From: a virus
Taxonomy: Duplodnaviria; Heunggongvirae; Uroviricota; Caudoviricetes
Length of the DNA stretch: 5,989 bases
IMG/VR virus record: IMGVR_UViG_2563366803_000001
Strand: one strand, 5' to 3'
Part shown: piece after piece, positions 2,679-5,989 of the stretch
Position numbering within the stretch: the stretch's first letter is position 1
Layout: every line of letters begins with the position of its first letter
Translations under genes and position numbers: made by a program
Notes under the pieces: generated by a model
Told to the model about the DNA's origin: nothing
What the model saw: the letters and a program-made list of their open reading frames with translations, nothing else
The model's database searches: none

Positions 2679-2718
2679 TGTCCACCGTGATTCACGTTCG
2701 TGAACATGTCCTTTCAGG

Positions 2719-2794
2719 GCCGATATAGCTCAGTTGGTAGAGCAGCGCATTCGTAATGCGAAGGTCGTAGGTTCGACTCCTATTATCGGCACCA
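2719..2794 (+). tRNA. thrW: tRNA-Thr, anticodon CGT, 76 nt with encoded CCA
   Basis: 7-bp acceptor stem gccgata/tatcggc, D-loop agctcagttggtagagc, anticodon loop ttCGTaa, T-arm ggttcgactcc, discriminator A and genomic CCA (2792-2794). Confidence 0.92.
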
Positions 2795-2808
2795 TTAAAA
2801 TCAATAAG
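2750..2808. other. Approximate prophage attL: the attachment core is expected to overlap the 3' part of thrW and the short spacer before the int stop
   Basis: The integrase stop codon (2809-2811) lies 14 nt past the tRNA CCA. tRNA-targeting integrases rebuild the tRNA 3' end from phage sequence. Exact core limits cannot be set without attR or attP. Confidence 0.4.
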
Positions 2809-3972
2809 TTACACATCATTAGTACCTTCCTTATTTTTTGACTGGGACAAATTTGGGACCGATGGGTTCAGGATCGAGTCTATTTGCCGTGCGTGTTCGG
2901 TAAGGTGATTAGGTGCAAGGTGAGCATATCGACGAACCATTTCGATAGACTCCCAGCCTCCCATTTCCTGTAACACTGACAACGGGACTCCGGCTTGAAC
3001 CAGCCAACTTGCCCAGGTGTGTCTCAAGTCGTGAAATCTGAAATCATCAATACCAGCCCGTCTCAGCGCCGCTTTCCAGGCTGTGTTTGCGTCATACCGC
3101 ATCTTCCTTACTGTTGGCGCTTTCGTTCCGTCTGGTTTGGTACAGCTTTCCTTGTACACAAATACCCAACGGTGATGATTCCCGATTTGTTTTTTCAATA
3201 CGCGACATGCAGTATCATTCAGCGCAACGCCAATTGCGCGGTTTGATTTACTCTCTTCCGGGTTTATCCATGCCACCCGGCGCTGCATATCTATTTGTTG
3301 CCATTCAAGGTTGATGATGTTCGAGCGTCTTAAGCCTGTTGCCAGTGCAAATTCAACAACAGACTTTAATGGCTCCGGACATTCATCAATCAGCCTTTGT
3401 GCTTCATGGGGCTCCAGCCAGCGGATCCGTTTATTCTTTGGTTGAGGCACTTTAATAATTGGTGCCTTATCCAGCATTTTCCATTCACGCTCTGCGGCTC
3501 TTAGTAGGGCCTTTATAAATGAAAGATGCGTAGCCTTCGTTGCAACGGACGCTGGTTTTGGCGTGTATTCTGGAACAGGTTTCCCTTTTTTTCTGCATGC
3601 TTCTGCCCTGAGTTTCCAGTTTTCCTCATGACGCCGGTTCGTCATTTTCTGCATTGCTGAATAAATTTTTGATTCAGTAATGTCTCTTAGTTGCATTCCT
3701 GCGAAATGTTGAAGCCAGAATCCGATCCGGCTTTTGTCATCGTCCAGTGATTTTTTATGTGCTTTCTCTTCAAGCCACCTGACACATGCTTCCTCGAACG
3801 TTATATCAGGTATTTCACCAAGTTTACTGACCCGCCATGCTTCAGCCTTTAGCTTGTCATGGAGTTCTGTCGCCTGCCTTTTGTCCTTTGTTCCAAGAGA
3901 CTTTTTAAATCTTTTACCGTTCGGCAATGTGAAACTGGCGTACCATATTTCACCTCTGCGGAAGAGTGACAT
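2809..3972 (-). CDS. int: Phage tyrosine integrase (site-specific recombinase), 387 aa, P22 Int-like
   Basis: C-terminal catalytic signature [40 protein letters not shown] (HxxR ... Y) and an upstream R in ATGLRRSNI. The N-terminus [22 protein letters not shown] matches my recollection of P22 Int. Shine-Dalgarno GAGGAAA precedes the ATG at 3972. Confidence 0.93.
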
Positions 3973-4199
3973 TTTCTTTCCTCTGTTATGCCATCACCCG
4001 CGCTCACCTGGACAGTATGCAGCGGAGACTGAAGAGCCGCAATGCAGGCTTGTCGTGTTGTGAGGTAAGGAGATTTATTCTTAGTGGGATCTTTGCGTGT
4101 TGCCTGAAGACGCCCTGTGCGTATCCAGTTAATAGCAGTCGGTCTGGATATCTTGAGAAAATGACAGGCCTCATCGAGTGTGAGGCTGTATGGCTCCAT
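3849..4199 (-). CDS. xis: Excisionase, 116 aa, P22 Xis-like
   Basis: Starts at the internal ATG 4199-4197 ([32 protein letters not shown], helix-turn-helix-like), preceded by a strong AAGAGGTG Shine-Dalgarno. The ORF-track start at 4283 has no such site. The 116-aa length matches recalled P22 Xis. The 3' end overlaps int by 124 nt in another frame. Confidence 0.8.
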
Positions 4200-4543
4200 T
4201 ATTTCACCTCTTGCTGTGACATTGTTGAAAAACGGATACCAGCTCGTTGCTGCCAGACGATCCAACCGAGAGTCATATCCCATGCCATGTATTCGTTATC
4301 GCCGTTTTTTGCTCTCCGACGATCGACTGTTTTACCGAAACGCTTTTCCATAAATAATTCATAGGCTGCGCGTTCATCTGGCTCAACTTCCAGAGATGCC
4401 AGTGCAATCCGTGCCAGTTCTAAATCATTTTCAAGCTCAGCGCGAATCTCAGCGAATGCACTCTGTGTTAAGGCGAACTCAATGCTCTGCACTTTATTCC
4501 GTGCGCGCTCAAGCAGTGCATGGTAGTTAATTTCGGTTGTCAT
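4199..4543 (-). CDS. Hypothetical prophage early-left protein, 114 aa, unknown function
   Basis: Good GAGG Shine-Dalgarno about 9 nt upstream of the ATG at 4543. Its start overlaps the stop of the upstream gene (ATGA, 4540-4543) and its TAA stop overlaps the xis ATG (TAATG, 4197-4201). Charged N-terminal half that looks helical by eye; no motif I recognise. Confidence 0.6.
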   Translation of the reverse strand: MTTEINYHALLERARNKVQSIEFALTQSAFAEIRAELENDLELARIALASLEVEPDERAAYELFMEKRFGKTVDRRRAKNGDNEYMAWDMTLGWIVWQQRAGIRFSTMSQQEVK

Positions 4544-5418
4544 ACCCCTACCTCTTCGAATTCCAATTCCAATTGATCACCCCAGATTTCACATGACTCT
4601 GAACACGAACCGGTATCGAATCGCCTGGCCTGTACCATCGCCTGATACAAATTTCTGTAGTCGCTGTTGGCAGACATTCTGGCAATTCCGTCAAGCGTCA
4701 GGTGACCACGGTACATAATGTCTTTACCTGTTCTGCGATGACCATCCCTGACGTGTTTGCCTGTAACCAGCTCATTAAAAACTCGCATCAGACCTGGTTC
4801 GTCTTTACATGCAAGCCCCAGCTTTTGCGTTGACTTTTTGATGCAGAAAACACAGTTCCCGAGATGCTCCGGGATTTGCAAATCAAAAGGTTGTTTTCGC
4901 CACCACCGGATAACATCCGACTTATCAAAATCTGACAGCTCGGCAAGATACCGGACGCCCGATTTCGGTTTCAGCCTACGGGGTTCGTCTGCACGAATAC
5001 CCAGCCATGTGATGTAATTACCTCGCCCGAAATGGTTATCGCAGTATTTCGTGAAAGGGATGAGTTTTAGCCTGTCAGTACAGAACGCGCCGCCGATGTA
5101 TGGCGTGCCGTACTTTTTAACCATGTCCATAAACGGTTTAAGCACCGGCATTCGTGTCTGAATATCCTTTGGCTCCCATTCTGTATAACCATTTGGCTGC
5201 CCAAGCTCAGGATTTATATCGACCTGTAACACAGTTAGTGGTATGTCCCAGAACTTTACAACCTCCCGGATAAAGCGGTATGTCAGCGGATGTTCGCAAC
5301 CGGTATCCATAAAGATGTAGCAGACGTTATTGCCAGCCTTTCTTTGTTCTTCCATCAGGTGAACAAGATATGCGGATGTTCTCCCGCCAGAAAAACTAAC
5401 TACATGAGTTATGCACAT
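4540..5418 (-). CDS. PAPS-reductase-like PP-loop ATP pyrophosphatase family protein, 292 aa
   Basis: N-terminal PP-loop motif VVSFSGGRTSAYL (SGGxxS type), as in the CysH/CysD/DndC family. Cysteine motifs NCVFC and C-terminal CSESC. Start ATG 5418-5416 overlaps the 3' end of the HD-domain ORF by 10 nt. Confidence 0.8.
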   Translation of the reverse strand: MCITHVVSFSGGRTSAYLVHLMEEQRKAGNNVCYIFMDTGCEHPLTYRFIREVVKFWDIPLTVLQVDINPELGQPNGYTEWEPKDIQTRMPVLKPFMDMVKKYGTPYIGGAFCTDRLKLIPFTKYCDNHFGRGNYITWLGIRADEPRRLKPKSGVRYLAELSDFDKSDVIRWWRKQPFDLQIPEHLGNCVFCIKKSTQKLGLACKDEPGLMRVFNELVTGKHVRDGHRRTGKDIMYRGHLTLDGIARMSANSDYRNLYQAMVQARRFDTGSCSESCEIWGDQLELEFEEVGV

Positions 5419-5766
5419 TTGCGTAATTCAGATAACTCGTTGAAGCGTTCCATAAACATCCCGTAGGCATGGCCCGGTGCCAGTGGAATAACTTTGAACA
5501 TCTCTGTTGCCGGGATACCTTCCAGTACAGGCCATAAAGAGCCATCATCAAGCCCGAGATCACGGCGTTCGGTTGCCAGCATAATGAGATCGGCATATTT
5601 CACTGGCGTGCTCATAACAGGAGGTAACCCGTATTTCTCACGGATTACTGCATCTATTTTTTCTTCCATCCGTTTATAGTCAGGAAGAAGGCGTTTCAGT
5701 GGTGCGGGGATGTCCTGGCAATACGCTTCTGTTGCATCATGCATTAACGCTTCAAAAGCAAATTCC
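5409..5766 (-). pseudogene. C-terminal fragment (about 119 codons) of a YfbR/YfdR-like HD-domain 5'-deoxynucleotidase, N-terminus removed by IS2
   Basis: The frame is open from the IS2 junction. The motif ALMHDATEAYCQDIPAPLK matches the recalled YfbR metal-binding motif MYHDASEVLTGDLPTPVK, and the later VKYADLIMLATE resembles YfbR VKQADALCAYLK. The part upstream of the HD motif, about 55 residues including the first His, would lie beyond the IS2 end. Confidence 0.7.
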
Positions 5767-5807
5767 TGGATTTGCCCCTATATTTCCAGACATCTGTTAT
5801 CACTTAA
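5767..5807 (-). repeat. IS2 right terminal inverted repeat (IRR), about 41 bp
   Basis: Same sequence match as the IS2 feature above. The element boundary at 5766/5767 is set by where the recalled IS2 terminus ...CAAATCCA ends. Confidence 0.7.
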
Positions 5808-5989
5808 CCCATTACAAGCCCGCTGCCGCAGATATTCCCGTGGCGAGCGATAACCCAGCGCACTATGCGGATGCCATTCGTTATAATGCTCGAACGCCTC
5901 TGCAAGGTTCTTTGCTGCCGTTAACCCGTCTGGTTTGGGCATGATACTGATGTAGTCACGCTTTATCGTTTTCACGAAGCTCTCTGCTA
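5778..5989 (-). CDS. insD: IS2 transposase InsD (orfB), C-terminal 70 residues; 5' part outside the window
   Basis: The translation ...[68 protein letters not shown] matches the recalled IS2 InsD C-terminus. TAG stop at 5778-5780. The ORF is open to the window edge. Confidence 0.85.

Follow-up and report, generated by a model that had tools for sequence, protein, structure and literature searches.

Organization of the three-gene block

We analyzed a 5,989-nucleotide stretch of DNA, hereafter referred to as the window, from the tailed-phage (Caudoviricetes) record IMGVR_UViG_2563366803_000001 of IMG/VR, and focused on a block of three minus-strand genes that lies directly upstream of the excisionase gene xis and specifies an HD-domain protein, a 292-residue protein resembling PAPS reductases, and a protein of 114 residues. 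An earlier note, made from the sequence alone, had taken these genes to be an undescribed, dedicated nucleotide-directed system in the early-left region of a lambdoid prophage. The block and the element that interrupts it are arranged as follows.

4199..4543, minus strand: 114-residue YfdT-family gene (PHROG 660; identity to K-12 YfdT)
4409..4530, minus strand: 5′ part of the 114-residue gene, from a third source, outside both the SfIV and the PA2 blastn homology
4540..5418, minus strand: NinC orthologue of 292 residues (PHROG 424, E 1e-90; Pfam PF01507)
5409..5766, minus strand: 3′ fragment of yfdR, codons 60-178 (96.6% nucleotide identity to K-12 yfdR)
5767..5989, minus strand: right end of IS2, comprising the 3′ end of insD and the terminal inverted repeat (K-12 IS2A match; Pfam rve_3)

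The placement in the early-left region is correct: the prophage is a lambdoid one of the SfV/CPS-53/P22-int type at a tRNA-Thr gene, and the block belongs to its early-left arm. All parts of the block are already annotated in hundreds of genomes, and the arrangement is a new mosaic of lambdoid early-left accessory genes.

The HD gene is yfdR of the Escherichia coli K-12 prophage CPS-53; it matches PHROG 318 (E 3e-107) and carries the RefSeq label 5′-deoxynucleotidase, and the Pfam YfbR-like model gave merely 20.9 bits for the fragment in the window. An intact 178-residue allele, free of IS2, is present in enterotoxigenic E. coli (ETEC) H10407, and the intact allele matches the HD protein 2gz4 in the PDB (E 1e-11), which upholds the HD-domain call made in the earlier note. 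PADLOC gave only a negligible match to YfdR. The DNA at 5767-5989 is 100% identical over 223 nucleotides to the end of K-12 IS2A, through its last annotated base, and IS2 replaces yfdR codons 1-59, including the first metal-binding histidine, so that the H...HD metal site is incomplete in the window and intact in alleles elsewhere. With the HD gene reduced to a pseudogene fragment, the window does not carry an intact trio. This yfdR allele, cut by IS2 in the same way, is also found at thrW in GCA_050199995.1 (99.9% identity), where an IS1 lies directly beyond IS2; the IS2/yfdR junction occurs in no complete E. coli genome of our collection.

The 114-residue protein shows 81% identity to K-12 YfdT over 81 amino acids (residues 36-114) and 93% identity to SfV orf28/SfIV gp30 over residues 46-114. 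Its conserved core spans residues ~44-103, the N-terminal ~45 residues being variable, and the YfdT core motif IALxSLE...DERxAYELFMEKRFG...NGDxEYMAWDM...W is present, with 20 invariant alignment columns; the gene adjoins xis, as it does in CPS-53 and SfIV. Scans with Pfam, NCBIfam, and PADLOC gave no match, and the AF2 model is all-helical and of modest confidence (pLDDT 73, pTM 0.45). Judged by its sequence, the 114-residue gene is the resident yfdT of the module and not a gene brought in with ninC. We also noted that the same core makes up the N-terminal part of many E. coli prophage proteins with DUF551, in which, over ~190-200 amino acids, the YfdT core is fused to a DUF551 (YfdS-type) domain. 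These fusions agree with genetic evidence that either yfdS or yfdT will serve in suppressing hda-185, and they suggest that YfdS and YfdT act in one process.

Mosaic origin of the block

Comparison by blastn divided the region into segments of different origin. SfIV/CPS-53-type homology covers 2749-4408 and 5411-5768, and homology to the ninC module of PA2-type Stx2 phages covers 4531-5420, whereas the DNA at 4409-4530, which corresponds to the first ~45 codons of the 114-residue gene, matches neither. The breakpoints thus fall at 4408/4409, at about 4530, and at 5410/5411, and the block combines DNA from three or more sources, joined at gene boundaries. Compared with the window, the Shigella phages SfIV, SfV, and SfII show 98% identity in int, in xis, and in the 3′ part of the 114-residue gene and 95% identity in the HD gene, and the stretch between the HD gene and the 3′ part of the 114-residue gene is absent from them. 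At the DNA level, the ninC gene of the window is closest to the copies that Stx2 phages such as PA2 carry in their early-left region, with 90% nucleotide identity.

The right-hand joint lies inside the 10-nucleotide overlap between yfdR and the gene that follows it. K-12 and SfIV read CGCAAATGCGCATGA at this point and yfdS starts from that ATG, whereas the window reads CGCAAATGTGCATAA, with ninC starting from the same ATG and continuing as PA2 ninC-like sequence; unlike lambda ninC, the ninC gene of the window is therefore chimeric with the yfdR/yfdS junction in its first three codons. In CPS-53, yfdQ-yfdR-yfdS-yfdT lie next to torI (xis), and the window shares with this prophage the gene order, the position on the xis side, and the 10-nucleotide overlap after yfdR, as well as 92.9% nucleotide identity over the 3′ part of yfdT. 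The window differs from CPS-53 in having ninC in place of yfdS (DUF551) and a replaced N-terminal third of YfdT; further, its yfdR is cut by IS2, and yfdQ and yfdP lie outside it. We conclude that the region is the yfdQ-yfdR-yfdS-yfdT-xis arrangement known from CPS-53, SfIV, and SfV, with ninC and a foreign 5′ segment standing where these prophages have yfdS and the 5′ end of yfdT. The cassette represents textbook lambdoid mosaicism, with the module joints placed exactly in start/stop overlaps.

Gene overlaps and expression of the block

The earlier note had described three minus-strand open reading frames (ORFs) joined by overlapping stop and start codons, and all three junctions were confirmed in the sequence: yfdR and ninC overlap by 10 nucleotides (ATGTGCATAA, 5418-5409), ninC and the 114-residue gene by ATGA (4543-4540), and the 114-residue gene and xis by TAATG (4201-4197), in which the stop of the 114-residue gene overlaps the ATG of xis. 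The same overlaps are found with other partners, that is, between yfdR and yfdS in K-12 and SfIV, between ninB, ninC, and ninD in lambda, between Dam and ninC in Salmonella phage Oslo, and between ninC and gp23 in PA2. In particular, ATGA stands at the 3′ end of ninC whether the next gene is the 114-residue gene (the window), gp23 (PA2), or ninD (lambda). Because the same overlaps join other partners, and because coupling in the window reaches xis too, the overlaps are properties of module boundaries and not the mark of a partner-specific functional unit; they reflect the way in which lambdoid modules are joined and translated together.

Co-transcription of the three genes is reasonable, as the genes are co-oriented and overlapping and have no internal promoter-like sites on their own strand; to this extent the proposal of co-expression as one unit stands, but a dedicated three-gene unit is unlikely. 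A promoter scan of the minus strand from 2700 to 5989 returned no promoter-like site, and no convincing terminator was detected inside the block; the terminator-like sites of the scanned region lie within ORFs and are close in number to chance expectation (7 against 3.8 ± 2.3). We considered whether the block is a moron, i.e. an autonomous insert with its own promoter and terminator, and rejected this because the coding strand has no promoter-like site and no convincing terminator, including in the flanks of the block. Rfam and repeat scans of the prophage part revealed no hidden RNA and nothing marking an autonomous unit, and its base composition is flat (GC 0.44-0.50).

Further, ninC has no recognizable Shine-Dalgarno sequence and relies on the upstream ORF for coupling. 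Because IS2 destroys yfdR and cuts the block off from pL, the block in this window is probably silent or expressed only via read-through from IS2. The insD gene is oriented as the cassette is, and, from the sequence, transcription by such read-through is conceivable.

Linkage of the three genes in Escherichia and beyond

We determined how often the three genes occur together in 5426 complete E. coli genomes. The yfdR gene was present in 2948 genomes and the ninC allele group of the window in 423 (with 72 places on plasmids); the yfdR-ninC junction was found in 283 genomes, the junction between ninC and the 114-residue gene in 179, all three genes in 176, and all three together with the xis and int of the window type in 42. 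Approximately 90% of the E. coli occurrences of yfdR were without ninC. The gene 3′ of ninC was also variable in 80 relatives from IMG/VR with NinC at least 92% identical to that of the window, being the 114-residue gene in 29, PA2 gp23 in 33, an ea22-like gene in 4, and another gene in 14. The trio recurs next to at least three int/xis types or sites, a point that the earlier note had proposed to survey; in these other contexts, yfdP and yfdQ are always upstream where the flank is intact.

NinC itself is widespread: 5032 clusters at 90% identity match it, and the exact protein of the window is indexed in 2147 blocks of an assembly collection. Homologues occur without yfdR or the 114-residue gene in lambda (ninB-ninC-ninD), Salmonella phage Oslo (Dam-ninC), PA2-type Stx2 phages, a P1-like plasmid, and hundreds of Vibrio phages, which gives NinC at least five alternative neighborhoods. 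The two families differ in phage host range: NinC is carried mainly by Vibrio, Stx, Salmonella, and Escherichia phages, and YfdR-like genes are carried by phages of Bacillus, Caulobacter, Escherichia, Rhizobium, Vibrio, and Pseudomonas. At 41 taxonomically diverse non-lambda genomic loci with a ninC homologue, a yfdR-like gene lay within 3 kb at one locus and a 114-residue-like gene at none, and NinB-like genes were nearby at three. Thus, the genes do co-occur beyond this locus, in 176 of the 5426 E. coli genomes, but each gene is found mostly without the others. The trio is a linked piece of one operon arm in Escherichia, and the pairing of the HD and PP-loop genes is not conserved.

Two side observations concern the distribution of ninC. 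First, the only plasmid that we inspected, pPEC1021-1 (93 kb), resembles a P1-type phage-plasmid in having phd/doc, a homologue of Pol III theta, and ead/Ea22-like genes; its ninC is flanked by a hypothetical gene on one side and an ead/Ea22-like gene on the other, with no yfdR. Second, lambda NinB was found at 100% identity in contigs labeled Pseudomonas, Oceanobacillus, Neobacillus, Shewanella, Chromatium, Segatella, and others, together with NinD where the downstream flank was present. Several of these contigs are about 48.4-48.5 kb long, and some have a coverage of roughly 1-10x in the contig name; they almost certainly represent contamination of assemblies with lambda DNA. The same contamination probably accounts for short Kitasatospora and Bradyrhizobium contigs that carry NinC at the same 79% identity and are too short for NinB and NinD to be checked.

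Overall, we consider it likely that the block is the promoter-distal end of a pL-type early-left operon of an SfV/CPS-53-like prophage at thrW, which assembles independent accessory genes in a mosaic. The idea of an undescribed, dedicated three-gene system is not supported, as the parts belong to the named families of yfdR, lambda ninC, and yfdT, derive from at least three sources, and are mostly found apart. The products of ninC and of the yfdR/yfdT genes would most likely act independently. For K-12 YfdR, it has been reported that its affinity for nucleotides is much below that of YfbR, that it binds domain I of DnaA, and that multicopy yfdQ and yfdR together with yfdS or yfdT inhibit replication initiation (PMC4776307). 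In line with this literature on the K-12 orthologues, on which the DnaA-directed role rests (the homologies, breakpoints, distribution, and fold are from the present analysis), YfdR together with YfdQ and either YfdT or YfdS may constitute a host-takeover module that binds DnaA and damps chromosomal initiation, with YfdR presumably retaining only weak deoxynucleoside monophosphate phosphohydrolase activity. YfdR shares the HD fold and motif with YfbR-type HD 5′-deoxynucleotidases, and its intact allele weakly matches the YfbR-like Pfam and NCBIfam models; it differs from YfbR in its nucleotide affinity and in binding DnaA, and the copy in the window, moreover, is a fragment without the first histidine. 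The main value of the analysis lies in correcting the reading of the block as a new system, and the interest lies in the function of ninC rather than in the trio.

The 292-residue protein is an orthologue of lambda NinC

The 292-residue protein is 79.4% identical in amino acid sequence to lambda NinC over residues 2-287 (98% of its length) and matches PHROG 33262 (E 2e-90) in addition to PHROG 424. It shares with lambda NinC (orf-290, PHROG 424) its size, the PP-loop and cysteine motifs, and the ATGA coupling to the next gene, but its gene lies between yfdR and a yfdT-type gene in the early-left arm and not between ninB and ninD in the nin region. Lambda ninC is non-essential, and its function is unknown (PMC10695390, PMC3224144).

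The earlier note had called the protein a PAPS-reductase-like PP-loop enzyme, and Pfam, the PP-loop motif, and the structural matches agree on this. Pfam PF01507 (PAPS_reduct) scored above its gathering cut-off, over residues 5-71 only. In 30 homologues that are 51-92% identical to the protein of the window, the PP-loop SxSGGRxS, a DTG motif, GNCxFCxKK, and CSESCE are invariant, as are the cysteines at positions 113, 126, 189 and 192 (GNCxFC), and 272 and 276 (CSESCE). The AlphaFold model (pLDDT 86.8, pTM 0.85) is confident save for the last 16 residues and has a Rossmann-like α/β fold with an N-terminal SGGxxS loop, which is that of the PP-loop ATP pyrophosphatase/adenine nucleotide α-hydrolase superfamily, and an extra helical insert at residues ~197-263. 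When the model was compared with the PDB using Foldseek, the top matches were CysH and adenylyl sulfate (APS) reductases (E 5e-5, TM-scores of 0.38-0.48), and the other best fold neighbors were the [4Fe-4S] PP-loop sulfurtransferases LarE, NcsA, and TtuA; the structure search suggested in the earlier note thus upheld the PP-loop fold. When the PDB was searched with a NinC profile, the matches to CysH and APS reductases were confined to about 100 N-terminal residues, and, with a match this short, the cysteines of the iron-sulfur (Fe-S) sites are not alignable residue by residue. We conclude that the 292-residue protein is the orthologue of lambda NinC and a PP-loop enzyme, but not a true PAPS reductase (see below).

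A possible role of NinC in escape from restriction

The closest link between NinC and a phenotype is through p0018 of Vibrio phage 44E38.1, a 479-residue PAPS::Dam fusion protein. The NinC of the window is 55% identical to it over residues 3-282 (283 positions, E 5e-110), a match that spans the NinC-like domain in full and takes in the GNCVFC and CSESCE motifs. They differ in that the protein of the window, with 292 residues and Pfam PF01507 only, lacks a fused Dam domain; the intact ETEC H10407 prophage encodes a phage N6-adenine methyltransferase as a gene of its own, at another place. When p0018 and its neighbor p0019 were moved into a sensitive phage, that phage infected a Dnd-carrying host (Piel et al., bioRxiv 10.1101/2021.05.05.442762), a finding later cited as a phage PAPS reductase promoting evasion of Dnd in a 2026 NAR paper that lists PAPS reductases among putative anti-defense genes (PMC13551039). 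A reappraisal of Dnd does not discuss stand-alone phage PAPS-domain proteins. We also considered the anti-Dnd protein JSS1_004 as a lead for NinC and rejected it, as it is an unrelated T7 gp0.7-like kinase.

The gene neighborhoods point in a similar direction. A Dam-type methylase was encoded within 3 kb of the ninC homologue at 12 of the 41 diverse loci, adjoining it in 2, and a Dam domain was fused to 2 NinC homologues among the 120 proteins listed. In Vibrio phages the two are fused. They are adjacent in Salmonella phage Oslo as well as in prophages of Sodalis and Erwiniaceae, and in those of Xenorhabdus and Photorhabdus a Dam-type N6-adenine methylase gene lies ~1.2-2.4 kb downstream on the same strand. 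A Dam-type methylase is the most recurrent associate of NinC that we found.

Taken with the fold and the motifs, these links suggest a working model in which NinC would be an ATP pyrophosphatase of the PP-loop type that probably bears an Fe-S site (Cys-113 and Cys-189-x-x-Cys-192) and has a flexible cysteine-rich tail (CSESCE). It might adenylate its substrate and transfer sulfur or a related group to a nucleic acid in the manner of DndC or SspD; it would act on DNA, either alone or with a Dam-type methylase or host sulfur-mobilizing proteins, and may help the phage to escape phosphorothioate-dependent (Dnd-type) or related restriction, as reported for p0018. The specific assignment of chemistry and target, that of a DNA-acting, counter-restriction Fe-S sulfur or adenylyl transferase, is tentative and in our estimate falls somewhat short of an even chance. 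The kinship of NinC with the sole PAPS-domain protein linked to a phenotype, i.e. escape from Dnd, and its recurrent link with Dam make a counter-restriction role testable in lambda and E. coli.

Alternative readings of the block

Several points weigh against the reading of the block as independent accessory genes, and against the role in counter-restriction that goes with it. First, yfdR lies directly upstream of the window-type ninC in 283 of the 423 E. coli genomes that carry this allele group and in 61 of the 77 IMG/VR relatives with enough upstream flank, and the trio stays together beside different int/xis genes, namely those of the P22 type, those of the lambda type at ybhC, and a third context. 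A functional link within Escherichia prophages may therefore exist, as the inheritance of one operon arm explains the linkage without disproving a function. Second, it is uncertain whether ninC, which has no Shine-Dalgarno sequence and is coupled to a truncated yfdR, is expressed in this window at all. Third, what was transferred in the anti-Dnd experiment comprised two genes and a Dam domain fused to the PAPS domain, which leaves the share of the PAPS domain itself unproven. Fourth, an Fe-S site in NinC is deduced solely from the conserved cysteines and the fold neighbors.

The linkage just described, together with the tight overlaps and the presence of the trio in 176 genomes, is what speaks for yfdR, ninC, and the 114-residue gene forming a single dedicated system directed at nucleotides or DNA, with the HD hydrolase and the PP-loop enzyme sharing a substrate or pathway; for example, the HD enzyme would supply or clear nucleotides for a modification carried out by NinC. 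We regard such a system as unlikely: most E. coli copies of yfdR have no ninC beside them, lambda, Oslo, PA2-type Stx phages, P1-like plasmids, and Vibrio phages carry ninC but no yfdR, and the two are almost never neighbors outside Escherichia. Further, the block was put together from at least three sources, its overlaps also join other partners, and the 114-residue gene, as the resident yfdT, is not a companion of ninC. A variant, to which we also give little credence, is that Escherichia prophages have made the trio a working unit. NinC, by modifying phage DNA or by mimicking or hijacking DndC, would then serve to evade phosphorothioate-dependent or other restriction, with the HD hydrolase acting on a nucleotide that is its by-product or substrate and the small helical protein targeting or regulating the two enzymes. 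If this were true, the 40-year-old orphan ninC of lambda would gain a function and a set of partners.

It is likewise improbable that NinC acts on RNA or in replication or recombination rather than on restriction, either tuning translation as a thiolase or adenylyltransferase of tRNA or nucleotides or working with the recombination genes of the nin region. The fold by itself would allow such a role, and the position of lambda-type ninC between ninB (Orf) and other nin genes would fit it, but NinB-like genes are near only 3 of the 41 diverse loci, the fusion to and the neighborhood with Dam-type DNA methylases point to DNA, and Pfam and NCBIfam scans detected no RNA-binding domain (THUMP, PUA, etc.) in the protein.

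Early-left regions are known hotspots for defense genes, and NinC could accordingly be thought of as a prophage-borne host defense that marks host DNA and excludes other phages by phosphorothioation of the DndC/SspD/BrxP type. Indeed, PADLOC matched the N-terminal half of the protein to SspD (E 1e-14) and its N-terminal PP-loop domain to BrxP (E 3e-4) and DndC (E ~5e-3), and NinC shares with these proteins the N-terminal PP-loop domain, cysteines compatible with an Fe-S site, and a DNA-related context. However, only half of the profile is matched (positions 2-125 of 277 in SspD), and NinC is phage-encoded and stands alone: we found no DndD/E, SspB/C, cysteine desulfurase, or BREX partner gene in the window or in intact relatives, including the ETEC H10407 prophage. 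Because these partner genes are missing, a defensive phosphorothioate modification is very unlikely; further, the lambda orthologue sits in the lytic nin region, and the only phenotype reported for a homologue is the escape of a phage from Dnd.

Finally, that the 292-residue protein is a true PAPS reductase, i.e. an auxiliary metabolic gene product for sulfate assimilation, is suggested by its database name, by PF01507, and by CysH proteins being its best PDB sequence and Foldseek matches, but is ruled out by a score of 20.5 bits against a cut-off of 154 for the NCBIfam CysH equivalog PRK02090 and by the C-terminal motif, in which an ECGLH-type sequence, which we take to be the catalytic motif of CysH, is replaced by the invariant CSESCE, and it fits poorly with the short Pfam match, the low TM-scores, the extra invariant cysteines, the helical insert, and an SGGxxS ATP motif that is intact in NinC, unlike in the aligned E. 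coli CysH.

The prophage and its surroundings

The remaining features of the window are the following.

1-81: end of an IS1, the first 81 bases, 100% identical to the IS1 copy in GCA_050199995.1
Between the IS1 end and tRNA-Thr: proB, then proA
2719..2794, plus strand: tRNA-Thr (CGT), the thrW integration site (ARAGORN; Rfam tRNA 71.8 bits)
2809..3972, minus strand: tyrosine integrase of 387 residues, SfIV/SfV/P22 type (Pfam Phage_integrase E 3e-48)
3849..4199, minus strand: excisionase Xis of 116 residues (PHROG 2907 over its full length, E 2e-50; Pfam HTH_17)

The prophage begins just after the thrW tRNA-Thr, with blastn homology to phage SfIV from 2749 on, and int is 98% identical in nucleotide sequence to the int genes of SfIV, SfV, and SfII. 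For xis, RefSeq calls a longer, 144-residue "helix-turn-helix domain-containing protein" that starts at 4283 and overlaps the 114-residue gene by 85 nucleotides. The ATG at 4199 is preceded by a strong Shine-Dalgarno sequence (AAGAGGTGA), and the excisionase family is matched end to end from this start; the RefSeq call is probably an over-extension. At the other end of the window, homology to ETEC H10407 begins only at base 82, which places the IS1 insertion between phoE and proB, on the upstream side of proB. We regard the prophage as a probable remnant within an IS-rich, Shigella-like genome.

The intact relative of the prophage in ETEC H10407 also carries two genes that are possible defense cargo unrelated to the trio: one, located between Q and the lysis genes on the opposite strand, encodes a KAP-family NTPase, and the other, close to the tail-fiber end, is of the GIY-YIG (LEM-3-like) type.

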